Source of the DNA: Schmidtea polychroa
Taxonomy: Eukaryota
DNA length: 64,000 nt
Direction of reading: 5' to 3'
NCBI GenBank assembly: GCA_044892525.1
Contig: CM097885.1
Coordinates: 13,022,001-13,086,000, forward strand
Shown: positions 2,704 through 23,280 of the stretch, in pieces
How the letters are laid out: each line of letters starts with the position of its first letter
Position numbering within the stretch: the stretch's first letter is position 1
Program-made: the position numbers and the translations under genes
Notes under the pieces: model-generated
What the model was told of the DNA's origin: nothing
What the model saw: only the letters and a program-made list of their open reading frames with translations
Database searches by the model: none

Positions 2704-3142
2704 ACATATAAATAAAATAAAAGATAATAAATATAAATGGGCTCATAAAATCACCATTAAACATAATTAATTGCATTTGGGGCTTGACAATCTAAAACAC
2801 TACAAAAATGGTATATAACGGAACCGGGTTTAGACCCAACTGGATGTATCTCCACTCTTCAACTTATTATAATAAAAAATTCCAACCGCAAAAGCTCTGA
2901 CGATACACATAAAAATAAAAGAACTATTAGAACAGTTATAGGTTTTTAAGTAATTGCATAATTATATGCGCATTTATAAATTGAAAATTATATGAAAATT
3001 ATAAAATCTTTCTTAAGTCATGTAAATATTTATGGCTAAAATAAAATTGAAGTTCTTACAACGAGAATCTTTGATTTATTTGTTTTAAATTTCTTGAAAG
3101 AGATGTATTGAGAAAAGGAAATTTTTATTTGAAAGGGTAGCC

Positions 3143-4168
3143 AGTAGTATGATGTGGGCTCCCCAGACCATGGGCCCTCCAGACCACATATACCCCCTCC
3201 CCCCCGGGAAAATTTTTTTTTAAAAAATAAAAGGTCAAGGTCATTTATTATTTTTTTTTAATTTAATTTTTTGTTTTAATTAAGTGGTCTGGCGGGCTCC
3301 TACTTTTTTTCATCCAAAAAATTAATGTTCCCGCCAACGGATTTTATTGGACGATACATCATCTTAAAGCTCAGTCCAAGACCTTTCGAATGAGCTATAG
3401 GTATCTTATATATCTTTAATAGTTTTAATGTTATTAACAATTGATGACCACCATCTTTTCAACGTTAAATTATTATTATTTTCCAAAATATTATTAATTG
3501 GCCGGGAGGGCCCCTACTTTTTTTCATCCCAAAAATTAATGTTCCCACCAACAGATTTTATTAATCAAACACTTATTTTGAAGCTTAGTGCAAGACCTTT
3601 CGAATGAGCTATTGAAGGTATTATCATCATTAACATCAGCAAAGTTATTAACATTTTACCAAAAATCATTTTCAAGGTCATATAATTATTAAGTGGTCTG
3701 GCGGGCCCCTACTTTTTTTCATCCCAAAAGTTATCGTTCCCATTATCCGAATTTATTAATCGATAGCTTATTTTGAAGCTTAGTGCAAGATCTAACTATT
3801 GATATATAAATATTATTAATATAATTATTATTGGCAAAATTATTAACGTTTTCCCGAGACCATTTTCAAGGTCATTTATTTTTCAAAATATTATTATTTC
3901 CAAGGTCATTTATTTTTCAAGGTCATTTATTTTTCAAGGTCATTCCCAAGGTCATTTATTTTTCAAGGTCATTTATTTTTTCAAGGTCGGGTGACTCATA
4001 AAGGTCTTTTTTTTTCAAGGTCATTTTTTAATTTAAGTTTTTGTTTTAATTAAGTGATCATTAAATTTTTCAAGGTCATTTATTTTTTCAAAATATTATT
4101 TTTTTCAAAATATTATTTTTTCAAGGTCATTTATTTTTTCAAGGTCATTTATTATTATTATTATTATA

Positions 4169-4217
<49 letters not shown>

Positions 4218-4304
4218 ATCTATCCGACAAAATATTCTGTCCCCCTATGGGTACTGCACACAAATGTACTACTCACACTCAACAAGTCACAAGGGTACTG
4301 TTCA
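3143..4304 (+). repeat. Left terminal inverted repeat of the Polinton (~1.16 kb)
   Basis: Reverse complement of 18076-19237. Contains three ~200-bp sub-repeats (GGTCTGGCGGGC-CCTACTTTTTTT...), (T/C)CAAGGTCA arrays and a TTA tract. Confidence 0.93.
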
Positions 4305-4372
4305 CAAAGTTACTGGTAAAAATATTCAAGACAAAACTTTCTAAATTCTAAATATTATTCTTTAAATATACA

Positions 4373-4731
4373 CTAAAATTTATTAACACATTCACATTCA
4401 TCATCTCCACAGTTCATAACATTTTCAACAACATGATCTATACAATCCCTATATATACACGGTTCAGTATCTGTAAATTCCTCCATAGGTTCATCAATTT
4501 CTTGAATGCTTTCCTCATCATCTTGAGTGTTTTCTTCATCTGTTTCATCAAATTCCGAATCTTCACTCTCTGCTACCCAGTCTATATTTAATGCGTTTGT
4601 AACAGATAATATATCCTCCATTTTCACACCAGATATTTCTGCTAATTTTTCCAATAAAAAGTTTATTATAAATTCTAAATATTAAATAATTTGATAATTA
4701 ACTAATCATATTAACCTTTTTCTGTAGTCAT
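4373..4731 (-). CDS. Small acidic Polinton protein with Cys-rich C-terminus, probably 2 exons (4731-4716, 4674-4373)
   Basis: ATG ACT ACA GAA AAA G|GT at 4731-4714 and a 41-nt intron ending TTTAG at 4675 join in frame to the 93-aa ORF (MTTEKEFIINFLLEKLAEISG...). Function unknown. Confidence 0.55.
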
Positions 4732-4834
4732 TATTAGTATTTTAAAACTATAGTATATATTTGTTTATAGAAAATATAGAATATAAGCGAAAACAAATAT
4801 AACTAAATACATTTATTAAATACAACAACATTTA

Positions 4835-5254
4835 TTAAAATAACTGTGAAAGTCTAGCAGACATAATTTTCCAAATTGGAGAATACACATCATTATTATC
4901 AACTTTATATCCTTGGATTGTAATTGTTATATACCAATTTTCGTTTTCTTTGAAGCTGATTTCATCAAAGGAATCATAAAATTTTGCATATCGGTTGTTG
5001 AAAAATGCATTTTGATTGCATGATAGATTCGTATTCAACCTTTTGAAAACATCATCTATGGTTTTAATATCTAACATTGAAAGCGTGCCGGTTAAGAATT
5101 GAAATTGGGTAGGAATTAGCTTGATCGGTGACACCAATTTCATATTGATTTCTTCTTTTAAAAAATACATTTTGTAGTTGTGGAACATTTGAACAGGTTG
5201 TACAAGTTCTGGAACTACTTTTGGTTTTTCAGTGCTTGAAATTTTCTTGGTCAT
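4835..5254 (-). CDS. Polinton accessory protein, 139 aa, unknown function
   Basis: Clean ATG-started ORF; TATAAAA (minus strand, ~5288-5295) and a CCAAT/ATTGG box at ~5317 lie upstream. Confidence 0.65.
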   Translation of the reverse strand: MTKKISSTEKPKVVPELVQPVQMFHNYKMYFLKEEINMKLVSPIKLIPTQFQFLTGTLSMLDIKTIDDVFKRLNTNLSCNQNAFFNNRYAKFYDSFDEISFKENENWYITITIQGYKVDNNDVYSPIWKIMSARLSQLF

Positions 5255-5362
5255 TGTGAATTATGATTAAAATGAAATGGTACAGGGTTTTTATACCTAT
5301 GACTATTGTTTATCATCCAATCAGATTGCAGTATGTTTTTGTTTTAATTGAATGATAAATAA

Positions 5363-5827
5363 TTAATTAAGTGATAATAAAAAATCTAAAAATTCTTTTC
5401 CTTCAATTATTGATTTAATTTCAGATATGATATTATCAACTATACATTTGTAATCAATATTTTTTATTCCAAGAATTTCTATCTTACCGCTAGCGAATAT
5501 ATTTACACACATAGGGTTATATTTTATATATCTCAAAGCTGGAAATAATTCTGGTTCATAAAAGCATGGTATTAATTTAGCTAATTTATTTAAATTACAA
5601 GAAAAACCTATATCGGAAGTTACGGTTATCGATTGTATTTCTAAATCATAAACATTATATTCACTAGCTTTGATTATTTCCTTACACCCCATAATTCTAC
5701 ATTTACCAGTTTTGAAATATATTATTGGATATTTATTACTTCTATTGATAAGTTGTTGTGGTTTCCCTATTGGAAATACCATTTTTGATACATCAGTTTT
5801 TGCCCTGTAATTTATATTTGAAAGCAT
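5363..5827 (-). CDS. TATA-binding-protein (TBP)-like protein encoded by the Polinton, 154 aa, intronless
   Basis: YEPELFPALRY...VNIFASGKIEILGIK matches TBP repeat 2 (YEPELFPGLIY...LLIFVSGKVVLTGAK). IIYFKTGKCRIMGCK matches repeat 1 (ALIFSSGKMVCTGAK). DLEIQSITVTSDI aligns with DFKIQNMVGSCDV. Confidence 0.88.
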   Translation of the reverse strand: MLSNINYRAKTDVSKMVFPIGKPQQLINRSNKYPIIYFKTGKCRIMGCKEIIKASEYNVYDLEIQSITVTSDIGFSCNLNKLAKLIPCFYEPELFPALRYIKYNPMCVNIFASGKIEILGIKNIDYKCIVDNIISEIKSIIEGKEFLDFLLSLN

Positions 5828-5931
5828 TTTAATGAAATAATTTTAAAAACTTTGATATATATAGGTATTTAAAAACAGAGTTCATTTAAATTATCAATAT
5901 AAACAATAATTATATAGTTTAAATTTAAAAA

Positions 5932-6570
5932 ATGGAATTACGAAATGATGCAGTATACCAAATCGTTGGTCCAAGTGGTAGCGGGAAAACTTTATTTGTT
6001 TGTAAATTACTAAAATCAAATTTGTTTAAAACAAAATTCAACAATATTTATTGGCATAGGGGCGCCGACGAAGAACACGGATTGACGCAATCAAGTTTCT
6101 GTCAGTTGAAAAACATGAAAATAGTAAAGGGCTTTGATAAAAACTGGTCAAGTCGTTTGAAGAAAGATGATGTCATCATTATCGATGATTTGTATCAAGA
6201 AGCCAATAAAGAAAAGGACTTTAATAATTTATTCACAAAAATCAGCAGACATGTTGGTGTAACAGTTATTTTCATAACACAAAATCTATTTCATCAAGGT
6301 GGAGCACATCGAACACGTAATTTAAATGTACAATATTTAGTTATTTTCAAGAATCCTAGAGATGCAACTGTCATTGATTTTCTTGGACGACAAGCATACC
6401 CTAATAACCGTAATTTTCTTATCAGTGCATTTCAAGATGCCACGAAAATACCGCATGGGTATATATTTCTCGATTTCACACAACAATGCCCTGATGATAT
6501 ACGCGTAAAAACAGATATTTTCAACCCAAAAGGTGCCATGGTATATAAACAAAGTTCAAAACAAAGTTGA
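5932..6570 (+). CDS. A32/FtsK-HerA-type genome packaging ATPase
   Basis: Walker A GPSGSGKT, Walker B IIIDD, and SRH...IFITQNLF motif typical of Polinton ATPases. Confidence 0.93.
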   Translation: MELRNDAVYQIVGPSGSGKTLFVCKLLKSNLFKTKFNNIYWHRGADEEHGLTQSSFCQLKNMKIVKGFDKNWSSRLKKDDVIIIDDLYQEANKEKDFNNLFTKISRHVGVTVIFITQNLFHQGGAHRTRNLNVQYLVIFKNPRDATVIDFLGRQAYPNNRNFLISAFQDATKIPHGYIFLDFTQQCPDDIRVKTDIFNPKGAMVYKQSSKQS

Positions 6571-6583
6571 AAACATATAAATC

Positions 6584-7072
6584 ATGTTTTCAAAAACAAG
6601 GATATCGGGTAAAAAACAACCAAAAGTTCCACCAACAACTAGTTATACTCCATCTAAAGAACTTATTACAGAAAATTTTCCTGCAATGAATCTTATTTCG
6701 AAAAATCCTAAACCTAAAAGTAAAACCACTAAGAAAGTAAAAGTTGTTAAAAATCATCGGAGTTTCCCGTTTTTCAATACATTGTTAAAGGCACCAAGTA
6801 TGAAAAGAAACAGTATTTTGCAATCATTTCCAAATTATGTTGTCGATGATTTACTCGATATTATACTTAAAGTAGTCAAAGGCAAGATTAAAATCAGTAA
6901 ATCTAAAAAGCAATTATTGAGTAAACATAGGAAACCTTTGCTATCATTAGTAAATAATAAAAATCGTCAACAAATGAGAAAAATTATATATAAACAACAA
7001 GGGGGATTTATCGGTGCATTGATACCTTTAGCAATATCATTATTAGGTGGAATAATAGGAAGTCGATCATAA
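6584..7072 (+). CDS. Basic core-like protein with C-terminal hydrophobic tail (adenovirus pX-like)
   Basis: Lys-rich body ending QQGG|FIGALIPLAISLLGGII, resembling the GG-cleaved hydrophobic tail of adenovirus pX. Confidence 0.6.
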   Translation: MFSKTRISGKKQPKVPPTTSYTPSKELITENFPAMNLISKNPKPKSKTTKKVKVVKNHRSFPFFNTLLKAPSMKRNSILQSFPNYVVDDLLDIILKVVKGKIKISKSKKQLLSKHRKPLLSLVNNKNRQQMRKIIYKQQGGFIGALIPLAISLLGGIIGSRS

Positions 7073-7133
7073 ACAATGGGTGCTAATCCTTCATTACCAG
7101 ACATTAAATTTAATATTAAATCTTCTTGTTGTA

Positions 7134-8192
7134 ATGGAGAAGATTTGGACGAACCCGGAAGACGAAGCCGGTTTTGGTGGAGTGGCAAAATTAAGGAAAA
7201 GAGTTCCGAATTCGAAAAAGGAAACTCAGAAGTGGTTATCAGACCAGCTTGCCTACAGTTTGAACAAACCAATGCGGAAACGATTCCCAACAAGAGCATA
7301 TAAAACATATGGAATAAATGATTTATGGCAAATGGATTTGATGGAGATGATACCCTATTCGAAAATTAACAATGGGTATAAATATATTTTAACATGTATT
7401 GATGTATTCAGTCGGTTTGCCCGAGCAATACCCGTCAAGGCAAAATCTGCAGATGAAATGTCTAAAGCTGTTAATCATTTATTTAAAGATGGACATCCTA
7501 AAAACTTGCAAACTGATTTAGGTATTAATATTATTATTTTTATTATTATTATTATTATTATTTTAGGTAAAGAATTCTACAACAGTAAAGTCAAGCAAAT
7601 CCTCAATAAATTGAAAATAAACCATTACTCAGTACATTCTCAATACAAAGCTGCTCATGTTGAAAGATTTAACCGAACTTTGAGAGATAGATTAAAGAAA
7701 TTATTCCTGCATCAAGGTAATAAAAAATGGGTATTGGTTTTACCAAAAATAATAACCAGTTATAATCACTCATCATATCAAGGACTGAATGGATTAAGGC
7801 CGATTGATATCACGTCAAAAACAATCTATTCTAAAAAACCTGAAAAAATTACAAAACCGAAATATAAAGTAGGTGACCATGTTAGAATTAGTAAAATTAG
7901 TGCATCACCATTTATTAAAAATTTCGATACAAATTGGAGTGATGAAGTCTTTGTAATTTCAAAAATAAATACTAAACAGAATCCTGTAATGTATGTCATC
8001 AAAGACAATGATAACAATATTGTACAAGGAAAATTTTATGAACAAGAATTACAAGTTATTCCTCCCCCAAAAGTATTTAGAATTCAGAAGATATTGAAAA
8101 CTAAAAAGGTCGGCAAGGATAAACAATACTATGTCAAATGGCATGGTTATCAAAACCCATCATGGATATCAGAAAAGGATCTAGTAAAGTGA
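7134..8192 (+). CDS. Retroviral-like DDE integrase with C-terminal chromodomain; 45-nt intron at 7522-7566
   Basis: WQMDL, CIDVFSRFA, QTDLG|KEF, VERFNRTL, PKYKVGDHVRI, and chromodomain YYVKWHGY...SW. The first ATG is at 7134; removing the GT..AG segment restores TDxGKEF. Confidence 0.95.
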   Translation: MEKIWTNPEDEAGFGGVAKLRKRVPNSKKETQKWLSDQLAYSLNKPMRKRFPTRAYKTYGINDLWQMDLMEMIPYSKINNGYKYILTCIDVFSRFARAIPVKAKSADEMSKAVNHLFKDGHPKNLQTDLGINIIIFIIIIIIILGKEFYNSKVKQILNKLKINHYSVHSQYKAAHVERFNRTLRDRLKKLFLHQGNKKWVLVLPKIITSYNHSSYQGLNGLRPIDITSKTIYSKKPEKITKPKYKVGDHVRISKISASPFIKNFDTNWSDEVFVISKINTKQNPVMYVIKDNDNNIVQGKFYEQELQVIPPPKVFRIQKILKTKKVGKDKQYYVKWHGYQNPSWISEKDLVK

Positions 8193-9205
8193 ATTTTTAT
8201 ACTATTTTACCAAGCAATAGTTGCCCGCTTATTCATCCAGATAATCAAGCCAGTAAATTCATGGTCAATCTCCAGAATCCGATTTCTTTAAATGGTGACT
8301 GGGAAGTTGCACTGCAAGATTTTACATTCGTGTACAATACATTCCCATTTTATAGTCAATGTAAGATTGATTTCAAAAGGAATGCTATGAAAACATGTAG
8401 TGGTATCTTTATTATCAGTAATTATGATAAAACATATCATATTCCGAATCAAATATTAGATCAGCATTGCTCTATGTTTTACAAGGATGGATTAAATATC
8501 AGTTGTGATTTTAAACCATTTACAATAACATTCGAATATATTGAAGATGCCAGACGAATGGGTTGCAATAAGTTGAAAAATGAAGTTATGGAAACAGATT
8601 ACTTATTACGCTTTGATCTATTTGAAGCAAACAGTGTAATGAGAGAAGAAATCAAAATTTCAGTGTCGTATAATAATGAAGTTGAAGAATCATTCACCTT
8701 CGCTGACGAATTATATATTGATAAACTTGATGTGTTACTTAAATATTTAAAGTACAATTGTTCACACATATTTAAAAGTTTGGACATTGTGAAAGATTTG
8801 TTATTTACCTTCAGTTTGAATGATGACATTTGCGAAGTTACATTTGATAAAAATTTGACAAATACACTTGGATTAGAGAAGCAACAATATCGGGAAAAAT
8901 CGGCTGGTATACGTAAACCAAGAATACTTGAACATCATCAACAAATGTCCATATATACTAATATGATTGAACCTATAATTGTTGGCGATTCCAGTGTTCC
9001 TCTATTGAAATCGGTATGGATTGGAAAATATGAACATGATGAAGTTGTCAATATAAATATAGATAATCCTATGTATTTACCAATTTCAAGCTCATGTATA
9101 AACAATATAGAAATAAATATTCGTGACGATAGTGGAAAACTTATAAACTTCCCAAAAGACTCAAAAACTCATTTGACACTACATTTTCGTAAAGTAGATG
9201 GCTAA
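8189..9205 (+). CDS. Minor capsid protein (penton-like)
   Basis: N-terminal FYTILPSNS...PDN...F.V.L...L.GDWEVAL and C-terminal IYTNMIEP..VGD...PLL, YLPI, IEINIRDDSG..I.F, LTLHFR. Start uncertain: GTG at 8189 overlapping the integrase stop, or ATG at 8138. Confidence 0.88.
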   Translation: MNFYTILPSNSCPLIHPDNQASKFMVNLQNPISLNGDWEVALQDFTFVYNTFPFYSQCKIDFKRNAMKTCSGIFIISNYDKTYHIPNQILDQHCSMFYKDGLNISCDFKPFTITFEYIEDARRMGCNKLKNEVMETDYLLRFDLFEANSVMREEIKISVSYNNEVEESFTFADELYIDKLDVLLKYLKYNCSHIFKSLDIVKDLLFTFSLNDDICEVTFDKNLTNTLGLEKQQYREKSAGIRKPRILEHHQQMSIYTNMIEPIIVGDSSVPLLKSVWIGKYEHDEVVNINIDNPMYLPISSSCINNIEINIRDDSGKLINFPKDSKTHLTLHFRKVDG

Positions 9206-9560
9206 TTCCGATATTATTAGTATGTATAGTGATAGCCAATCTGGTGGTGAATTACCATATTTTATCGGTAAACAGTACGGAACAGGTTGGTTAAAAACAA
9301 TAGGGAGATTTGCACTTCCTATTCTTAAACGTATTGGTAGTTTTGGCATGAAAACTGCTAAAGATGTGATTATGAATGAACAGAAAATATTACCATCTCT
9401 AAAAACAAATGCTTTAGCGGAGTTAGGGAAGGTTCTACCTGGAGTTGCTGGTATGTTTCAAAAAGATACGCCTACAGCCCCAGCTCCAAAACGTAAAGGA
9501 CATGGAATATCGCGTATAAACAAACGAATGAAAGGACATGGAACTATATTTGCAAAATGA
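9198..9560 (+). CDS. Small conserved Polinton virion protein with amphipathic helix (putative protease substrate)
   Basis: QSGGELPYF..KQYGTGWLKTIGRFALPILKRIG pattern, located between the two capsid genes, with a basic C-terminus. Confidence 0.7.
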   Translation: MANSDIISMYSDSQSGGELPYFIGKQYGTGWLKTIGRFALPILKRIGSFGMKTAKDVIMNEQKILPSLKTNALAELGKVLPGVAGMFQKDTPTAPAPKRKGHGISRINKRMKGHGTIFAK

Positions 9561-10780
9561 TTTGTGGTAAATCTGAATTATGTATATTTGATAGACCATC
9601 GCCCCAGGCTGTAATAGAATTTGGGGCCTTTGAGGAAGTTTTTCCTATGAATTCAATTACTGATAGTAGAAATGATATCGAGTTTTATATTAATGGTTCG
9701 CAAACTGAATATTTAGATTTGAACGATACTTTATTGACTGTTCAGATCAAAGTTGTAGATAAAGATAGAAAAGTTTTGGATGCCAATGCGGATGTATTAC
9801 CAAACAATTTCATGTTTCATACTCTGTTTAAAGATGCAGTGTTGGGATTTAATAATATCAAGATTGAGGGCGGAAATAATACATTCATTCACAAGGCTTT
9901 GATAGAAACTATTTTAAATTACAATTCAGATACTAAAAATACCTGTCTTACACCTATAGGTTATGCAGCAGCAGATGATGAAAGAAAAAAGTGGGTTAAA
10001 GGTTCAAAAGTATTCACTATGTGCTCATCATTACAACTTGATTTTATGGATCAACCGAAATATTTACTACCGGGAGTTAATGTACATATTAGATTGAAAA
10101 GGTCCGATTCTGCATTGTCTCTTACTAGTGCAACTGGTGCACCAATATGTCAATTAGTTGATGCAAAATTATTGGTGAGAAGAGTTCGAGTAGACCCGTC
10201 AGTATTAGCTGGTCATCAATTGGGTCTTAATTCAAAACATGCAATTTATCCTTTAAAAACAAAGGAAATTGTACAATTTGCTATTGCTAAAGGTGCTTCA
10301 TCATTCTATAAAGAACAAATATTTGGTGACAGAAGAATGCCTAATTTTATTCTGGTAACATTTCAAAGTGAAACGCAATATAATGGGTCTTATACTGCTT
10401 CCAGCTCAATTTTCAAAAACTTTGGTGTTACTTCATTGACTTTGTCGAAAAATACTGATTATAGAGAAACATATACTCAAGATTTCGAGAATGATAATTA
10501 CTGTGCGACATATATGCAGAGTATTGTTAGAAATCTTGGTTATTTAGATAAAAACTTGAATTGTGGAATAACTCTTGAAGAATTTAAAAGCAAATATCCA
10601 TTTTTCACATTTGTTTTAGCCCCCGATTTTGATTTAAATCAGAGTCAATTACCACAAAACGGAAATTTACGACTGGATATAAAGTTTGCAAAGGCCATTA
10701 CTGAACCAGTACATGTTATAATATATGGAGTATTTGAAAATGAAGTTCAGATTACTGCAAATAGAACCGTGCTAGTATAA
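9557..10780 (+). CDS. Major capsid protein (double jelly-roll)
   Basis: CGKSELCIF..P.PQ, IEFYI.G...YLDL..T.L.V, QPKYLLPGV...IRLKR, GNLRLDIKF and final ENEVQIT..R motifs of Polinton MCPs; intact 407-aa ORF. Confidence 0.92.
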   Translation: MICGKSELCIFDRPSPQAVIEFGAFEEVFPMNSITDSRNDIEFYINGSQTEYLDLNDTLLTVQIKVVDKDRKVLDANADVLPNNFMFHTLFKDAVLGFNNIKIEGGNNTFIHKALIETILNYNSDTKNTCLTPIGYAAADDERKKWVKGSKVFTMCSSLQLDFMDQPKYLLPGVNVHIRLKRSDSALSLTSATGAPICQLVDAKLLVRRVRVDPSVLAGHQLGLNSKHAIYPLKTKEIVQFAIAKGASSFYKEQIFGDRRMPNFILVTFQSETQYNGSYTASSSIFKNFGVTSLTLSKNTDYRETYTQDFENDNYCATYMQSIVRNLGYLDKNLNCGITLEEFKSKYPFFTFVLAPDFDLNQSQLPQNGNLRLDIKFAKAITEPVHVIIYGVFENEVQITANRTVLV

Positions 10781-11192
10781 ATGTATACAGAAACACCAAA
10801 AAGTTGTCATGGAGTAAGTTTTTCAATACTGTTTAATTTATTAAAGTAGTTCTGTTCAGGTCAATAGAATTGGAAAACAGATATTGGGAAATGAATTTGT
10901 AGGAGTTTTTCCTCTCGATAAAATCCCATATTTGAGCATTAATCAAGCCATAATCGTCAATACTCAATCGTCTCATCTTGGTGGAGAACATTGGATTGCT
11001 ATATATATGAAACCTAGTAATATATTCGTGTTCGATCCAATGGGTTTCTATTACCCTGCTTTGTTGGTATCAAAACTACAAACAATGGGGAAACCTATTG
11101 TATATAATAAAACTATGTTTCAAAATCCATTAACACAAACTTGCGGTCAACATTGTTTAGCTTGGTTGTTGTATAAAAAAATTGATGTTTAA
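10781..11192 (+). CDS. Adenain/Ulp1-like maturation cysteine protease, probably 2 exons (10781-10813, 10860-11192)
   Basis: FVGVFP.D, IVNT...GEHW, FDPMG, Q....TCGQHC (His/Asp/Gln/Cys catalytic set). The ATG follows the MCP stop directly; a GTAAGT..CAG 46-nt intron removes an in-frame stop. Confidence 0.88.
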
Positions 11193-11221
11193 TAAATGTA
11201 TCCTTTCCTTTGTTGTTGTTG

Positions 11222-11650
<429 letters not shown>

Positions 11651-11749
11651 TAATTAAATTTATTTTGAAAAATATTATTATCTAACTACACAATCATTGT
11701 GCATGCACAAAGTCATGACTAACAAAGATATGCAATCCCATTTGATACC

Positions 11750-11840
11750 ATTTGATTGGCTGATAGAGGAAAAAGTATTCAGAAATGTGTCTTAATTCTG
11801 ATTGGTTGAGACATGGAAATATTCCTGTTCTATATAAACA
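11750..11840 (+). promoter_or_regulatory. Candidate Pol II promoter of the pPolB gene
   Basis: Two GATTGG (reverse CCAAT) boxes at ~11754 and ~11800, and TATATAAA at 11831, about 80 nt before the ATG at 11915. Confidence 0.55.
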
Positions 11841-11914
11841 TTGACAAATTCCAAATTCATCACAATTTTATCAAAATTTTCAATTTCTAATTTTTCAAAA
11901 TTACAAACTTTAAA

Positions 11915-12967
11915 ATGTCTAACAATAACAACAACATATTAAGAAGTCTATTGACTAACGGTAATTTTATTATTTATTTATTTATTATATTTTATTCTTT
12001 ATTTTTTAGATGTGTTCGATTGGTATCAAGTTACTGAGGACGAAAGAATTTTGAATGTTGATAGGATTTTCGGTAAATTTAAATATTTTAATTTTTATGA
12101 AATTATTATTATTTTATTTAGAACCTATTATAATTAGCGACGATGATGATGTCGTGTTTATTGGACAAACTAATGCCCCGGATAATGATGCCTTATTTAT
12201 TAGGCAAAACAATGTTTTCAATAATCAAAGTAAATTTATTTTATTTTAGTATATTATTTTTTAAAAATCATTTAGTGTTTAATGTTGACATGGACGCCCC
12301 AATTAATAATGATGAGGAAAACAATATGGAAAATGTCCTCACTTCTATTGAGGAGAATAATGCTCACATATCTATTGATGAAAATAATGCCCTCACTTCT
12401 ATTGAGGAGGTAGCTGATGAGGAATCTGATTCCGATCAGGAATCACAATGTAAGCATTTATTTATTTTTATATTTCTTTAACAAAAATTTTTAAAATTTT
12501 CTTAATAACTTTTTTAAACATTTGCATAAATCTTAATCGTAAAATTATTATGTTTTTTGAATTATTATTGTAATTATGACGAAATTATGAAGAAATTACT
12601 ATGATGGAAATTATAAAGAAATTACTATGATGAAAATTATGAAAATACTATGATGAAACTAATATGACGAAAATGAAGAAAATTATGAAAATGTTATATT
12701 GAAATTATTATAACGAAAAATAGAGGAAATTATGAAAATGATGAAATTATGAAAATGATATTTGATGAAATTATTATGAAGAAATGAAGAAATTATTATG
12801 AAGAAATGATGAAATTATGAAAATGATATTTAATGAAATTAATATTATGATGAAATGATGAAATTATTATGAAATTATTAGGTTATGCAAATGTTTAAAA
12901 AAGTGATTAAGAAACTATAGTTTTAAAATATTCCTTGTAGTTTGCAATGAGCAACTACATTAGTTTA

Positions 12968-13046
<79 letters not shown>

Positions 13047-16000
13047 TATCTTGTAGTCTGCAGTGAGCATGCAGCTACATATCTCTTTTATTATGATTGC
13101 CCCAATAAATGTAGTCTGCAGTGAGCATGCAGCTACATATCTCTTTTATTATGATTGCCCCAATAAATGTAGTCTGCAGTCAGCATGCAGCTGCATCAAC
13201 TATTTATTACGTAATAAATACAATCTTTAAATGTAGTCTGCATGCAGCTGCATCAACTATTTATTACGTAATAAATACAATCTTTAAATGTAGTCTGCAT
13301 GCAGCTGCAACAAACTATTTATTGTGTAATAATTAACCCTTATTAAATATAGTCTGCATGCAGCTGCATCAAACTATTTATTTATTATGCAATAATTACA
13401 ATCTTTAAATGTAGTCTGCAGTGAGCATGCAGCTACATCAATAATAATAATACTAATATTTTTATTCTATACATATACTCTCTTTCTAATATTATTTTAA
13501 TAATTTAATATGTTTAGTTAGCATGCAACTAAAGACTCTTATTATATAAACATGTAGGTTACAGTGAGCATGTAACTACAGAAACAATAATAATAATAAA
13601 ATCCCTATTATAGTTTACAAGACTTTATTAATATTTTACAATTATTAATATTTATTTCATTTTTATATTGTATTTAAATGAAACATATATCAATAATTGC
13701 AAAAGAACTAAATGATAAAAGAAATATAAATGATATATTAATTTCATGATTAATAATAATTGATAAATATAATTAACAGGCAAATTTTATCCACATTACT
13801 GCCAGGCTTCAACTGGTCACTCAAATTTATGTCACAAAGTGATGAAAAAATATTATGGTCGTAAATTTTATGGCATCAAGTACTATATATGCCCAATATG
13901 CGAGACTTCCCATAGCATTAAATATTTAGAGTTTTACAGTATACATAAATCCCATTTAAATCAGTTCTCTTTAAATAAAAAGGATTTATTTAACAAACTA
14001 CGAAATACTGCAAAACCTATAATTAAAACTAATGTAAATAATATTACAAAACATGTAAATAATATTACAAAACCTGTAATTAAAACTAATACAAAACATG
14101 TAAATAATATTACAAAACCTCTAATTAATAATGTTATTAATGTAAATAATAATTTAAAAAGACCTGCTGTTAGTATTGGGTCTGATGCTCCCTCTAAAAT
14201 TAATAAATTAGAACAAATAACTGTGGTTAATAATATTCAAGTAGGCGGTTCAGTCGATATTGACGATGAACCTGAAATCGAAATTGATTTTAAGGGGGTT
14301 CGAAAGAATCTAAGATTTAATGTAGAAAAGGATAACATCGTTCAAATAACCATAACCGATAAAATCGTTAAGTTAAAACATGAAATAAACAGAATGGGGT
14401 CGGTGAAAATACAATTCTCTGTATTGATTCAATTTGAAAAAGATGGTGAAATTAAAGATAATTTCTTCTCGAATAGGGCAGAGGCTTTTTCAGATAGTTT
14501 TCTAAGTGAGGGGGTTCACAAATTAAATAATAAAATAGAAAAATTCACATATTTGGGTAGTGGATGGCGGGTTGTTAAAATCAAAGAAATAGATTTTATA
14601 TTAACAAAATTTACACATATGAATAGGCTAGCTGGACATAGTTACATCCCCACCCCATCATCTTTAAAATCTAAAAATGCAATAGTAAATGTTAAAAACA
14701 CCGATGATATGTGCTTTATATATAGTATTTTAGCACTTTTAAAACGTAATATTATACATAGACATAGGAACCGTGTTAGTTCCTATGAAAATTATCTCAA
14801 CGAGTTAAATTTTGACCCCATTTCCGACTGCCCAATGAAACTATGTGATATTCCTAAATTCGAGATGAAAAATAAGGATTTAAATTTAGCAATAAATGTT
14901 TTAACTTATAGAACGACCCCTGCTAAGCCTTTTGAAAATATAGTTGACGATAATTATATTCCACATCATCCCAAATTGGATATAATTCACCAATCTAAGG
15001 TTATAGGTGGTGAACCCATATACTTACTTCTATTGGAAGACGGAGATAATTTTCATTATACCGCAGTTTTTAATTTGCAAAGATTAATGAATTGTCGCTC
15101 TAGCAGTGAATGCGGCGTTAGAATTAAAGTGAACTGGTGCCCCCATTGTCTTAACGGATTTAGACTTAAAAATGCATTTGATATTCACGTTGCCTTATGC
15201 ATTAAAAACCAGATAGGTACTACTTTATATACCCTACCTAAAGAGAAAAATTTAATTTTTCAAAATTATGCGAAAACCATAACCCTGCCATTCGTGATAT
15301 ATGCAGACTTTGAATCAATTTTACCGGGGGATATAATACACCATCAAAAGCATTTGCCAATAACAGCAGGTTTATTATTAATAAATAATTATAATAACTC
15401 CAAATTTTATTATGAGTTTGTTGGGGATGATTGCATCTTATCTTTCTTGCGTAAGGTGGAGGAAATTCCTATGACAATTGTCCTACCATATTACGAAATT
15501 AATGGGAAAAAGCCCATGCAAACCTTGTCTTTCGCTGAAGAGCGGGCCTTTCGTGATTCCAGAACCTGTTATCTTTGTAAAAAATTCATTAGAAATAGAG
15601 TTAGGGATCATTGTCACTTTTCAGGTAAGTATCTTGGTGCTGCTTGTAGGAAATGTAATGTGTCTCGACGAATTCAGAAACAGTTACCTGTGGTTTTTCA
15701 CAATTTGAGGGGGTATGATCTTCATCATATTTTGAAGTATGGTTTGAATAATTTTCCTTCTTGGGAATTAAATATTATTCCGACCACTACTGAGAAATTC
15801 ATCTCTCTTATCGCGTACATTAACAAATTGTCTGTTCGTTGTATTGACAGCATGCAGTTTGTTAATTCGTCTTTAGCAAAAGCGGTTAAGACTCTTTCCG
15901 ATCTGCCTTTAACTTCTTCTGTTTTCGATGGCGCAATTGTTCGAGCCAAAGGTATCTTTCCTTATGACTTTGCCACATCTCTTGAGGTTCTAGAATCGAC

Positions 16001-17714
16001 TCTTGAATTGCCACCTATTTGGGATTCTGTGTCTAATGATGAATATGCATTAGCCTAAGTTATTTGGACTCAGCAAAACTGCAATAACATGTTAGATTAC
16101 ATGTTAACTTACCTTAAATTAGACGTGTTTCTCCTCGCAGACTATTTCCAACAATTCCGTGCAAAGGCCGTTGCTTACAATGGTCTTGAGCCTCTTAATT
16201 TCTATGGCATTCCCGGTATGTCATGGGCCTCTGCGCTTATGACATTAACGGAACCCATTGAACTTTTGCAGGACATGGAAATGTTTAATTTCTATGAAGG
16301 AGGGATACGGGGTGGGTTAACATTTGTTAACAAACATTATGTTGCAAGTTCTGAAGACACAGAACTCTTGTATATTGATATTAATAACTTGTATGGTTGG
16401 GCCTTAAGCCAAAATCTGCCTTATGCTGACTTTGTTTGGGTGTATGATGATCTTGATTCTGTCTTGAATGAATGTATGAATGCTGATATCGATAACCTTC
16501 CATATGGCTATACTATGGAGGTAGATATCGATATACCTGATTGTTTGCATGACTTTCTGAATGATTTTCCGCTTGCTCCGGAAAAGATGTGCCCGCCAAA
16601 TTCTAAAGTTGAGAAGCTGATGCTCACGCATTGGCCAAAGAAGAACCATGTTCTTCATTGGCGACTTCTCAAGTTGTATATAGAATTGGGGGCTATTATT
16701 AAAAATGTACATAGACCAATCAAATTTGAGCATGCACCCATTTTTAAATCTTACATAGACAAAAACACTAATTTGAGAGCCAATTCTACATGCGAATTAT
16801 ATAGGGATCTATACAAATTATTTAATAATAGTCTGTATGGGAAATCCGTAGAAAACCTTAAAAAACGGATGAATTTGAGGCTATGCAATTCAGCTGAAAA
16901 GATGATTGTATATGCTTCAAAGCCGACTTTCAAGAAATCTATCAAAATTGATGATGACTTGATTGCTGCACATCTCAATAAGGATTCTATATGTTTAGAC
17001 AGGCCTAGTTACATTGGCCAAACGGTGCTAGACCTGTCTAAACTGAGGATGTACCAGTTGCAGTATAAAGAATTGGCTAAATATAGAAATGAATTTAAAT
17101 GTGAGATAAATATCGTTGCCGGCGATACTGACTCCTTTTTTCTTGAGGTTAGGCACTGTAAGCTTGACACTCTTTTGCCGTCAATGATTCGTGACAATCT
17201 TTTAGACACTTCCAACTATGACCCTGCACATCCCTTATACTCTAGAAACCTTGATTCGGTGATAGGTAAATTTAAAGATGAAAGTAAAGGTCTAGGGTAT
17301 AAGGAATGGGTTTTCTTAAGACCCAAGTGCTATAGTTTGTTAGGGGTTAAAGATCATTTAAAGGCAAAAGGAGTTAGGTTAATAGGTACAGAAATTAGGC
17401 ACGATTCATATTTAGAATGCTACAATAACGACGTAGTATTTTCTGTGCCACAAAGTAAGATAGGGACGCGGAACCATCAATTGTACACATTTAAAAACAA
17501 TAAAATCGCGTTGACAAACAACGACGACAAGCGGTTTTGGGTGGGGAAAAATTCCAGTCTCGCATTTGGTCATTATTTAGCACTAGATGATATAAATGAT
17601 GATCAAATATTTGAAGAAGTTGGGGCACTATTCGGAGGATTAAGTCCAGATTTTGTTTCTGGTGATGATCCTAATGATGAAATTGATATTGACGATGTAC
17701 AATTGAGTGATTAA
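11915..17714 (+). CDS. Protein-primed family B DNA polymerase; predicted exons 11915-11960, 12010-12072, 12122-12229, 12276-12449, 13780-17714; single in-frame TAA at 16056-16058
   Basis: Exonuclease motifs YADFES, FHNLRGYD, YLKLDV. Polymerase motifs YIDINNLYG, KLFNNSLYGK, GDTDS. Also GSGW, an NTDDMCF...FHY region and an EndoVII-like CxxC..RDHCH insert. The two large ORFs share a frame, and four phase-1 GT-AG introns join the upstream exons in frame. Confidence 0.93.
12937..13580. repeat. Array of ~10 palindromic units GTAGTCTGCA(GTGAGCA)TGCAGCT(A/G)C with ~58-bp period
   Basis: Copies at about 12937, 13053, 13111, 13169, 13232, 13290, 13350, 13411 and 13554, plus an isolated copy near 18016. 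Confidence 0.85.
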
Positions 17715-18075
17715 GCGATTTTAATATATCTTTTTCCTGTGATAAATAAATATAACTTTGTAAAAACATTGATTTGTGTTGATTTTTATTAATGAAAAGT
17801 TTTCGTATTTCTTTCTATGGATAAAAATCATTATATTGTGTAATATTATTAAACATTCCTTAAGTGTTTAAACATAGAAAGTATATTAAAAATTGTTTTA
17901 TTATTGAAAACTAGTAATGTTGTCACTATGGAACAGGACTTTGTTTTGAGCCATTAAAAGAATTTAAATTTTTATAAAGTTTTATTTAATTTGATAATAC
18001 TGTTCATATTTACTTTAGTTTGCAGTGAGCATGTAACTAAATATCTTTGAAAAAAAAATAATAATAATAATAATA

Positions 18076-18162
18076 TGAACAGTACCCATGTGACTTGTTG
18101 AATGTGAGTAGTACCCATGTGAGCAATACCCATAGTGGGACAGAATATTTTGTCGGATAGAT

Positions 18163-18238
<76 letters not shown>

Positions 18239-19237
18239 TATAATAATTATAATAATAATAATAAATGACCTTGAAAAAATAAATGACCTTGAAAAAATAA
18301 ATGACCTTGAAAAATATAATGATCACTTAATTAAAACAAAAAATTAAATTAAAAAATGACCTTGAAAAAAAAGTCCTTTATGAGTCACGCGACCTTGAAA
18401 AAATAAATGACCTTGGAAAATAAATGACCTTGGGAATGACCTTGAAAAAATAAATGACCTTGAAAAAATAAATGACCTTGGAAATAATAATATTTTGAAA
18501 AATAAATGACCTTGAAAATGGTCTCGGGAAAACGTTAATAATTTTGCCAATAATAATTATATTAATAATATTTATATATCAATAGTTAGATCTTGCACTA
18601 AGCTTCAAAATAAGCTATCGATTAATAAATTCGGATAATGGGAACGATAACTTTTGGGATGATAAAAAGTAGGGGCCCGCCAGACCACTTAATAATTATA
18701 TGACCTTGAAAATGATTTTTGGTAAAATGTTAATAACTTTGTCAATAATAATGATGATGATACCTTCAATAGCTCATTCGAAAGGTCTTGCATTGGGCTT
18801 TAAAATAAGTGTTTGATTAATAAAATCTGTTGGCGGGAACATTAATTTTTGGGATGAAAAAAAGTAGGGGCCCTCCCGGCCAATTAATAATATTTTGGAA
18901 AATAATAATAATTTAACGTTGAAAAGATGGTGGTCATCAATTGTTAATAACATTAAAACTATTAAAGATATATAAGATACCTATAGCTCATTCGAAAGGT
19001 CTTGGACTGAGCTTTAAGATGAGGTATCGTCCAATAAAATCCGTTGGCGGGAACATTAATTTTTGGGATGAAAAAAAGTAGGAGCCCGCCAGACCACTTA
19101 ATTAAAACAAAAAATTAAATTAAAAAAAAATAATAAATGACCTTGACCTTTTATTTTTAAAAAAAAATTTTCCCGGGGGGGAGGGGGTATATGTGGTCTG
19201 GAGGGCCCATGGTCTGGGGAGCCCACATCATACTACT
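18076..19237 (-). repeat. Right terminal inverted repeat of the Polinton
   Basis: Near-identical reverse complement of 3143-4304; similarity decays at the inner end. Confidence 0.93.
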
Positions 19238-19730
19238 GTAGCCTAATTGATTTAGAATGAATTTATTCAAGATATAGAATTATTCAATTTATTTGCATAT
19301 TGAATTGGAGCCCTGTCATGGTTAATATGTATGGAAATGTATTGAACGAGGTAAATGCAATATTATATCTATATGGTTGACACATTTCAGGAGATTGGAA
19401 CACATTGATAATCCTTACCTGATGAATTATTAAACATATATTCATCAAAAGAAATTGATAAATGAAGTTAGATAAAATACATTTCAAGAATATTTCTTAT
19501 CAAAGTTTGATGGAGTTATGGACGGTTATATTCTATAGGCATCACATTATTTCATAGGCACTCCATAATGCTATTCCATAATTACTCCCAACAGTAATAG
19601 AATGCAATTACATTTCTTTTTATTTCATTTAAACAAACTTAAATTATTATTAAAACCATGACTGCGATATTTGGTTAACTTTTATTATTACTTTTATTAC
19701 TTTTGTTATTAGTATTATTATAAAAATACA

Positions 19731-21549: not shown

Positions 21550-22900
21550 ATTCAACAACAAACCAACAACTTAGTACCAACATGTATTTACAATTAGATA
21601 CTAACAACCAAAAACAAGCAACCAACTAGGTACCAGATACCAAGTACTAACAACCGCCAACAACCAGATACCTACAACTAGTTACTAACAACATGTTACC
21701 TGATACCAAGTACTTACAACTAGATACCTTGCACTAACTAACTCTCAAACAACCAGATACTTACAACCAAGTACAAGATACCAAGTACTAACAACCGAAA
21801 ACAACCAGATACCTACAACTAGTTACTAACAATTAGTTACTAACAACCAGTTACCTGCTACTAAGTTCTTACAACCAAGTACTAACTACCACCTACCATG
21901 TACTAACAACCAAAAACATGCAACCAACTAGCTAACTAACAACCAGTTACCTGATACCAAGTACCTACAACTAGATACTAACAACATGTTACCTGATACC
22001 AAGTACTTACAACCGACAACAAGCAGGTACTAAGCATCATCAACCAACTACTAAGTACATACAACCAACTAACAACTACTTACAACCAACATCAACCAAC
22101 TACCTACAACTAGTTACTAACAACCAGTTACCTGATACCAAGTACTTACAACCACCCACCCATTAACCAACATCAATCAGCTAACAACTAGCTACCACCT
22201 ACCCATTAACTAGCTACAACCAGCTAACTAGGTACTAGATACCAAGTACTAACAACCCACAAAAACCAGCTAACAACCAGCTAACAACCACCTACCAAGT
22301 ACTAACAACCGACAACAACCAGTAACTTACGAACATGTATTTACAACCAGATACCTACAACTAGTTACTAACAACTAGTTACCTGATACCAAGTACATAC
22401 AACTAGATACTAACAATCAGTTACCTGCTACTAAGTACCTAAAACCACCTAACAAGTACTAACAAACGACAACAACCAGGTACTAAGCATTATCAACCAT
22501 GTACTAACAACTAGATACCAAGTACTAACAACCAGTTACCAACTACTAAGCACCTACAACCACCTACCAAGTACTAACAACCGCCAACAACCAGATACCT
22601 ACAACTAGATACTAACAACCAGTTACCTGCTACCAAGTACCAACATCAACCAACTAGCTACAACCTACCAAGTACTAACAAACGCCAACAACCCATTAAC
22701 TAGCTACTAAGTACTATCAACCTACAACAACCAGGTACTAAGCATTATCAACCAAGTACCTACAACCAACAACAACTAGCTACCACCTACTAAGTACTTA
22801 CAACCAAGTATAAGATACCTAGTACTAAGCACTGTCAACCAAGTACTAACAACTAGATACCAGGTACTAAGCACTGTCAACTAGATACCAAACACTTACA
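21550..22900 (+). repeat. C/A-rich shuffled short-motif array (ACAACCAGTTACC, GATACCAAGTACTAAC)
   Basis: Dozens of permuted copies, mirrored as a shorter G/T-rich array at 31290-32015. Confidence 0.85.
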
Positions 22901-23207
22901 ACTAAATGACCACATGAAATTATTGGTTAAATATGAAAATAAGGGTTATATTTAGTTGTTAAGTAAATTATGGTGTAAAATTAAGTAATAAAGAATAATT
23001 AGGTAAATTAAGGATAAATTAAGGAAAATTAAGGTTCAAAATTTAAAATTAAAGCTAAAGGAGTAAATTAAAGTAATAATTTTTAAATAAGTAATGTAAT
23101 AAGTAAATTAAACTAAGATTTTTAAATTTATTATCAAAAGATTGAATAACCACCAACTTTTTTGAGAAATGTAATTTATAATGAAAATTTAAATGGAAAT
23201 TTTAATG

Positions 23208-23280
<73 letters not shown>

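Follow-up and report, generated by a model that had tools for sequence, protein, structure and literature searches.

Introduction

Canonical TATA-binding protein (TBP) kinks DNA with four phenylalanines, two in each of its repeats. Its C-terminal stirrup docks TFIIB or Brf1 (PMC6066478). Viruses also encode proteins of this kind. The late-gene TBP-like proteins of beta- and gamma-herpesviruses, namely BcRF1 of EBV, ORF24 of KSHV, and UL87 of HCMV, are reported to read a non-canonical TATT box (PMC4922670, PMC7498053, PMC4893493). Nucleocytoviricota encode TBPs as well, among them Heterosigma akashiwo virus, the mimivirids, and asfarvirus (B263R-like). Here we describe a TBP-like gene, TBPL, that is carried by a Polinton in a stretch of 64,000 nucleotides of Schmidtea polychroa DNA (GCA_044892525.1, contig CM097885.1, positions 13,022,001 to 13,086,000 of the forward strand). 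We call this whole stretch the window, and all coordinates refer to it.

What distinguishes TBPL from the TBPs already described, and what might it do for the element? By sequence and predicted structure, TBPL is a derived variant of the TBP family. A TATAAACA-type box is shared by the packaging and capsid genes of the element and its relatives and never precedes TBPL, which suggests that the element has a transcription switch of its own, from early to late genes. We lean, at slightly better than an even chance, toward a reading in which a viral TBP, expressed early from a host-type promoter, reads the late box of the element and recruits host TFIIB and Pol II.

The herpesvirus proteins are the closest working analogy. 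As their sources portray them, they are encoded by nuclear DNA viruses, act on a variant TATA box of late (structural) genes, and use host Pol II. They are, however, several hundred residues long, act as part of a complex of six viral proteins, and make direct contact with Pol II, whereas TBPL has 154 residues, belongs to PF00352, and carries a TFIIB stirrup. When the TBPL model was searched against a viral fold library, BcRF1 (a model of 577 aa) ranked 36th and was a weak match (E 1.3e-2, TM 0.36). We would therefore place the herpesvirus proteins as functional analogues of TBPL and not in its family. The best viral structure-library matches were giant-virus TBPs (E 1.8e-7 and weaker, 20 at E ≤ 1e-3), which resemble TBPL in being a virus-encoded TBP fold and differ from it in size, with 186–608 aa among the listed matches. 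Giant viruses with TBP homologues bring their own RNA polymerase. No RNA polymerase subunit gene was found among the Polinton ORFs (open reading frames) in the ORF list or with Pfam, and the element must draw on host Pol II.

The preliminary description of this stretch, which was made from the sequence alone, left open whether such a gene had been described. One label exists in print: a "TBP" gene is marked on the map of a MELD (adintovirus-like) virus from non-animal datasets, in the legend to Fig. 5 of Starrett 2021 (PMC8502044). The available text of that paper gives no architecture, distribution, selection, or promoter description for the labelled gene, which may or may not belong to the TBPL family. 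In a search of Polinton, Maverick, and adintovirus literature for TBP or promoter motifs, with figures and supplements outside its reach, this label was the only match. One "TATA" hit, in PMC12220804, proved to be an author's name. Of ten TBPL-family proteins looked up, nine were present among the protein clusters and fell into nine separate ones; the members read in these nine clusters carried no NCBI or UniRef accession and no curated name, only automatic JGI names. What TBPL adds to the known virus-encoded TBP homologues is an unusually reduced architecture, a Polinton as host element, and a matching late-promoter box.

Results

Architecture of TBPL

The gene lies on the minus strand of the window.

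5363..5827, minus strand: TBPL (TBP-like gene, P0001, 154 aa), intact ORF from ATG to TAA

A strand-only N-terminal half-repeat (about residues 1–58) is followed by a complete TBP repeat (about 59–154), and the motifs YFKTGK, YEPELFP, and IFASGK stand at residues 37–42, 90–96, and 110–115. Pfam TBP (PF00352) matches residues 62–125 at E 7.1e-14 (51.9 bits, cut-off 22.9). A phmmer search of PDB sequences gave 39 matches at E ≤ 10: 35 TBPs, at E 5e-16 to 1.4e-6, and 4 further entries, each with E ≥ 0.97. Because of these two results, the family assignment is far above chance. A profile of the TBPL family matches 35 TBP sequences in the PDB at E 5e-21 to 2e-15. Whether the query is TBPL alone or the family profile, sequence searches detect the C-terminal repeat only. 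Residues 61–140 align with either repeat of archaeal TBPs, so that by this measure TBPL contains one full repeat. The N half is nevertheless a repeat: aligned by hhalign, the profile columns of the two halves match with 85% probability (E 6e-6).

The structure of TBPL was predicted as an AF2 model from a family alignment of 32 members, which we call A1 (pLDDT 94.9, pTM 0.83). All 44 Foldseek hits to the PDB at E ≤ 1e-3 are TBPs, with the next hit at E 3e-2. VIA-align places residues 1–141 of the model on residues 6–177 of M. jannaschii TBP (Z 12.6, rmsd 2.5 Å, 141 residues), and its 38 top-ranked entries are all TBPs (best non-TBP, Z 6.2). TBPL thus belongs to the same family by sequence, PF00352, as cellular TBP and TRF and archaeal TBP, and is predicted to share their saddle fold. 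A two-lobed saddle with a continuous curved beta-sheet is present in the model, in which both lobes exist with about 35 fewer residues than in TBP.

The N half does not have the two helices of a complete repeat (S1-H1-S2..S5-H2). DSSP assigns it strands 2–10, 25–28, 35–38, and 42–48 and one helix of four residues, 54–57; the C half has the usual strands and helices 79–83 and 127–153. Compared with cellular TBP, then, TBPL is shorter, lacks H1 in its N repeat, and keeps H2 as a four-residue remnant; its gene sits on a mobile element, and the protein forms a branch of its own, with no more than 30% identity to host TBP and TRF. Its C repeat is like that of cellular TBP: it retains both phenylalanines, the strand with SGK, and the EPELFP stirrup, which in TBP is clamped by TFIIB and Brf1. 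Phe95 and Phe111 are invariant in the family, and Phe38 is retained in at least 90%. In the hhalign register of the two halves, the counterpart of Phe95 is Lys22, which stands at the first phenylalanine position of repeat 1, and the canonical set of four is incomplete. TBPL is classed as a derived variant because it has neither two complete repeats nor, in this alignment register, four phenylalanines.

Much of this had been anticipated. The preliminary description had claimed an intact, intronless frame of 154 residues with the three motifs named above, set inside terminal inverted repeats (TIRs) and divergent from the ATPase block, that codes for an asymmetric TBP homologue with an EPELFP stirrup and a shortened first repeat missing part of its helices. 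Each of these points is borne out by the frame, the map given below, and the PF00352, Foldseek, VIA, and DSSP results. As to introns, 30 of the 31 homologues aligned with TBPL begin at the same M-x-x-N-I-N-Y, and TBPL therefore needs no upstream exon. The claim that the first intercalating phenylalanine is lost stands in the hhalign register, with the qualification that Phe18, four residues upstream of Lys22, is mostly conserved.

Which parts of the protein does the family preserve? In A1, the invariant residues are L79; E91, P92, E93, F95, and A97 in the C-terminal stirrup; and P105, C107, N109, F111, G114, K115, and G120 in strands S4'-S5'. In the N half, N4, I5, N6, Y7, P23, F38, G41, C43, R44, M46, and G47 are conserved in at least 90%. 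By region, columns conserved to at least 90% make up 9 of 13 in the C stirrup, 8 of 15 in strands S4'-S5', and 1 of 33 in helix H2'. The stirrup and strands are conserved and H2' is variable; therefore, selection keeps the sheet and the stirrup and not the convex helices. The window copy has a private Glu117, a position that pairs with a valine of the SGKVVITG strand in the PDB alignment and is valine in the 29 other copies of a sample of 30 from the same genome.

Docking to TFIIB

The stirrup sequence E91-P92-E93-x-F95 is invariant in the 32 family sequences. A complex prediction with TFIIB had been proposed in the preliminary description. The cyclin repeats of host TFIIB are split by introns, and the first TFIIB-family match in the genome is Brf1, judging by its sequence; the partner used was residues 100–308 of a TFIIB taken from a database, which shares 92% identity with the host exon. 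TBPL with this TFIIB core scored 0.52 (three agreeing runs, partner pLDDT 86) against 0.00 for the best of three controls, which lends the pairing weak support. In the calibration set of 78 solved complexes, only 5 scored 0.60 or less, as did all 4 passing mismatches. TBP and TFIIB are a textbook pair, and the predicted score may reflect memory of their solved complexes.

Elsewhere in the genome, 13 open frames of 301–310 aa match the TFIIB cyclin family weakly (E 1.5e-8 to 1e-6) and fall in two clusters, at C3:38.2-39.1 Mb and C1:23.8-24.2 Mb. By their sequences, they probably form an amplified family of TFIIB-like or cyclin-like genes.

Promoter boxes of the element

We defined the late box as YATAAAC[A/G], sought up to 150 nt upstream on the coding strand in distinct loci. 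Its forms are TATAAACA-type and T/CATAAACA, as contrasted with canonical TATAAAAG; TATAAACA differs from the canonical TATA box in the 3' half only. The late box precedes the packaging ATPase gene in 25 of 28 loci, where mononucleotide shuffling predicts 0.5 and the reverse strand has none, and 15 of the 25 instances lie at -34 to -38. It also precedes the genes for integrase (INT, 12/17 loci), orf355 (5/8), orf120 (6/6), and the major capsid protein (MCP, 8/8), as well as orf162 (6/9, with approximate starts) and orf139 (3/13). There is no reverse-strand instance in any late-gene set. Upstream of TBPL, the box was found in 0 of 60 loci. The only bias around its core is in the preceding base (T in 39 and C in 19 of 64 instances). 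The distance of about 35 nt from the ATG and the strict orientation are typical of a core-promoter element.

In the window, the features of the element other than TBPL are as follows.

3142..3978, no strand: left TIR (by blastn, 97.9% identical to the reverse-complemented right end over 839 columns with 3 gaps)
4373..4621, minus strand: 82-aa acidic ORF with a Cys-rich tail, no Pfam family
4835..5254, minus strand: orf139, putative single-stranded DNA-binding protein (SSB) beside TBPL, OB-fold model
5828..5931, no strand: divergent intergenic region of 104 bp, with a TATATATA run about 35 nt before the TBPL ATG
5932..6570, plus strand: packaging ATPase of Pox_A32 / FtsK-HerA type (Pfam PF04665, E 2e-7), late box at -33
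6584..7072, plus strand: orf162, basic, conserved downstream of the ATPase, late box at -39
7134..8192, plus strand: retroviral-type integrase with chromodomain (rve E 3.5e-8, Chromo E 2.3e-4), late box at -65
8138..9205, plus strand: orf355, conserved, between integrase and MCP, possible minor capsid protein, ATAAACA at -19
9198..9560, plus strand: orf120, conserved small protein, ATAAACA at -100
9557..10780, plus strand: putative double jelly-roll MCP, late box at -41
10845..11192, plus strand: adenain-type cysteine protease frame, 115 aa from stop to stop (Peptidase_C5 E 1.3e-6, 28.7 bits, cut-off 21.3)
13842..17714, plus strand: protein-primed PolB (Pfam DNA_pol_B_2, E 6.7e-16)
18401..19238, no strand: right TIR (same blastn comparison)

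The ATPase box is ATAAACA at 5899-5905 on the plus strand, 33 nt before the ATG. Altogether, ATAAACA precedes 6 of the 7 plus-strand genes at -19 to -100, an arrangement matched by none of 200000 random sets of seven positions in the element. Ten elements of other subfamilies in the same genome have the late box before ATPase (6/7 evaluable), orf162 (8/8), INT (7/7), orf120 (9/9), and MCP (8/8) and before TBPL in 0 of 10. The box offsets are unchanged in these ten, which are close relatives and not independent. The polymerase upstream region was evaluable in 3 loci only.

TBPL has promoter signals of another class. Of 60 loci, 31 have TATAWAW upstream, where shuffling predicts 18 and the reverse strand has 12; 26 of its 39 instances lie between -47 and -33. 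TTGTTTWA occurs in 24 of the 60, against 2.3 after shuffling and 1 on the reverse strand, and lies mostly between -65 and -54. CCAAT/ATTGG, at 20 of 60, barely exceeds the shuffle value of 14.5. The loci that bear TTGTTTWA are largely those that have no canonical TATA box. Our first promoter guess, TAGGTATWWAAAA, which occurs before orf139 and ATPase, was dropped, since it is not enriched (with up to 2 mismatches allowed, 43 occurrences were found and 58 expected).

Could TBPL instead be a general substitute for, or competitor of, TBP on ordinary TATA boxes, or a decoy for TFIIB, or both, while a forkhead-type host factor reads YATAAACA? Such a protein might, for example, bias transcription toward the element or escape host TBP regulators. 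A C-terminal repeat with both phenylalanines and the EPELFP stirrup would suit that role, and the TFIIB prediction, weak as it is and possibly a memory of solved complexes, agrees with it. The box fits RYAAAYA, the forkhead consensus, and TBPL types that are only 53–59% identical occur with the same box. However, the late box is confined to the coding strand in the late-gene sets, and its fixed distance, most plainly before ATPase, is the behavior of a core promoter and not of an orientation-free enhancer. Moreover, a decoy would not need the conserved strands of a putative DNA-binding sheet in both halves. We consider this explanation, the strongest of the rivals, unlikely, while giving it a real share of our belief.

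Copies, homologues, and selection

TBPL is widespread. In its own 781-Mb assembly, all 150 scored matches (ranked by protein score) are full length, stop-free, and 99–100% identical. A first look gave 4115 candidates for TBPL against 5012 for MCP, and 102 of 102 scored MCP matches are 100% identical. A database search returned 77 TBPL homologues among 94 candidates, mostly of 144–160 aa and 33–95% identical. When 1.84 billion cluster representatives (50% identity) were searched with a profile, 3381 matched at E ≤ 1e-3, with ordinary TBPs among the weaker ones; 755 reached E ≤ 1e-10, and 59 reached E ≤ 1e-30. The family is a large one, of at least these 59 clusters.

A metagenome scan yielded 80 TBPL loci. 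Another element gene is present in 55, a hallmark gene in 42, and two or more in 25; the 25 loci with no other element gene are contigs of 1.0–4.4 kb. Gene order is kept even in three loci (L082, L085, and L087) whose MCP is only 26–28% and ATPase 36–40% identical to those of the window. A complete TBPL ORF occurs in 64 of 81 loci. For TBPL, dN/dS is 0.036–0.42 (median 0.16) in 41 of 41 metagenome pairs with at least 65% identity and dS > 0.03, which are not independent of each other; for ATPase, it is 0–0.12. Among 30 own-genome copies, a sample biased by its ranking on protein score, 9 variable TBPL sites are synonymous and 1 is nonsynonymous.

Where did the gene come from? Against host TBP and TRF frames, TBPL reaches at most 30% identity over stretches of at least 60 residues (best E 3e-6). 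In a tree of repeat domains, a 99/96 split separates 45 of 45 sampled family rows, together with the repeats of P0149, from 24 two-repeat TBP rows, 7 of which are host; the tree has 87 columns and is poorly resolved within groups. P0149 (219 aa) has two full Polinton-type repeats and nests in the TBPL family. To judge from its sequence, it seems to have arisen when the complete repeat was duplicated a second time.

A captured host TBP fragment that decays neutrally and has no function is contradicted by these data. Only the private, non-conservative substitution in the window TBPL and the broken polymerase gene of the same element point that way, whereas dN/dS stays below 0.43 in every pair, the frame is complete in most loci and in all scored copies, gene order persists beside strongly diverged capsid proteins, and the clade stands apart from host TBPs. 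We regard this idea as next to impossible. By sequence comparison, TBPL is a regular gene of a broad clade of Polintons, under purifying selection, and not a recent host retrocopy. The outcomes that the preliminary description had named as fatal to its proposal were no TBP fold, presence in one copy only, nesting within host TBP, and neutral evolution, and the fold searches, copy counts, tree, and dN/dS values all came out the other way.

Ten own-genome loci of other subfamilies (L129-L138) present a further pattern. Their ATPase, INT, and MCP are 85–95% identical to those of the window, and their TBPL is only 53–59% identical (9/10 loci). TBPL is divergent beside conserved neighbors; therefore, the TBP cassette has been swapped or is evolving far faster. 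Several of these loci have a long (TA)n tract between TBPL and ATPase.

The Polinton and its neighboring genes

TBPL lies inside a TIR-bounded Polinton at 3142-19238, head-to-head with the packaging ATPase gene and 104 bp from it. The hallmarks found in the element are PolB, rve integrase, packaging ATPase, adenain-type protease, and long TIRs. A first pass found the inner 724 nt of the TIRs (3194-3917 / 18464-19187), and blastn gave the full arms. We claim no target-site duplication, as the flanks outside both TIRs have only TAGC in common. The MCP lead comes from an Atlas feature search, in which 13 of 30 hits fell in PF21738 DJR-like_dom clusters (score 0.98); Pfam gave no hit.

The copy in the window is probably non-functional as an element. 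A TAA at 16056-16058 interrupts the PolB frame; six related loci have a sense codon there. The first ATG of the protease, at 11007, is downstream of its conserved N-terminal part, and trinucleotide repeats occupy 11185-11444, after the protease. These three features, together with Glu117 in TBPL, are why the copy looks inert.

Next to TBPL, orf139 has tblastn matches in 24 of 80 metagenome loci. Its model is an OB-type barrel (pLDDT 90.8) for which VIA gives ASFV CP312R, DUF2815, Enc34 SSB, and T7 gp2.5 (Z 6.7–7.1) and Foldseek only E 0.085. All four best structural matches are viral or phage-related, and three are described as binding ssDNA. From this model, orf139 is a candidate SSB for protein-primed replication. 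We had considered it as a protein partner of TBPL and dropped the idea because the model resembles an OB-fold ssDNA-binding protein. Upstream of its ATG are TATAAAA (about 47 nt) and ATTGG (about 72 nt). A short AT-rich intron-like stretch (…CAAG|GTAA…TTTAG|) precedes orf139 in L036, L043, L045, L047, L049, L053, and L063, and those metagenome elements would therefore be spliced in the nucleus. The window copy of orf139 is intronless.

This neighborhood raises another explanation for TBPL, namely that it is an architectural factor that bends DNA for replication or integration, by binding the origin or TIRs of a protein-primed element, and not a transcription factor. TBP-fold proteins do bend AT-rich DNA. 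In addition, TBPL adjoins the putative SSB and, in some metagenome loci, is near the polymerase gene. Replication would not require a TFIIB-docking stirrup, however, and the stirrup is the most conserved part of TBPL. ATAAACA has no match in either TIR (3142-3978 and 18401-19238), and the promoter class of TBPL differs from that of the late genes, as a regulator's would. We find this role for TBPL highly improbable.

Outside the element and unrelated to it, the window contains an inverted-repeat structure at 24627-29424, with arms 24962-26509 / 27544-29091 (1548 nt, 99%) and outer parts 24627-24940 / 29111-29424. It is flanked by strong opposite GC skew in the 2-kb bins of 22001-26000 and 28001-32000.

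Discussion

How might a reduced TBP and a variant TATA box work together? We propose three steps. First, TBPL would be transcribed early by the ordinary host machinery from its canonical TATA-type promoter. Second, the protein would bind YATAAAC[A/G] at a fixed short distance and in one orientation before the ATPase, integrase, capsid, and neighboring genes. Third, the invariant EPELFP stirrup would dock host TFIIB, and hence Pol II, which would turn on the late morphogenesis genes. The preliminary description had suggested that TBPL retargets host polymerase to element promoters or acts as a TFIIB decoy. The first of these suggestions gains indirect support from the conserved late-gene box that TBPL itself does not carry.

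The shape of TBPL offers a way to explain the shape of the box. The C-terminal repeat of TBP covers the 5' TATA half of its box and the N-terminal repeat the 3' half; therefore, a rebuilt N-lobe would read the deviant 3' half (AACA). Host TBP regulators bind a surface that the N-lobe helices form, and loss of these helices would remove it. A more far-reaching version of our proposal is that TBPL is the smallest known working TBP, made of one and a half repeats, whose helix-less N-lobe shifts the half-site from TATAAAAG to YATAAACA, so that the element has a self-contained two-step programme unseen by regulators of the convex N-lobe. We offer this version tentatively and would sooner doubt it than assert it.

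Several points weigh against an early viral TBP that switches on late genes through this box. The link between TBPL and the late box is one of co-occurrence, since every locus was recovered via TBPL. We sought TBPL-free Polintons for comparison, and IMG/VR gave 1 weak TBPL match and, for ATPase, 0 matches with a single protein and 1 with an alignment; the two loci were uninformative. Start codons were set by rule in these loci. As the loci are also related, their counts are not independent. For the protease, the late-box count of 3/6 is unreliable because an internal ATG was used. Across the whole window, ATAAACA is not enriched (28 against 42 expected). It also fits the forkhead-factor consensus, and a host factor could read it. 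The elements in which TBPL is 53–59% and ATPase, INT, and MCP 85–95% identical to those of the window keep the same box (9/10 loci), and a swapped or divergent TBPL with an unchanged box is not predicted by tight co-adaptation of protein to box. Finally, the window copy itself, with Glu117 at a conserved hydrophobic strand position and a broken PolB, may be inert.

What would the early-to-late switch mean for Polintons? To our knowledge, next to nothing has been established about Polinton/Maverick gene expression, and these elements have been treated as wholly dependent on host transcription. If the proposal is true, an element-encoded TBP and a positioned box would give Polintons a virus-like early-to-late programme, and, like the beta- and gamma-herpesviruses, they would have independently reached a "private TATA code" for late genes. 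Its parts lend themselves to direct testing: a small protein, a box of 8 nt, and a single docking loop. As near-identical copies number in the thousands in this genome, the system may be active now. TBPL would also be a natural experiment on the TBP fold, one that bears on the extent to which the N-terminal repeat is dispensable and on what its removal does to DNA specificity and to regulation by the host.

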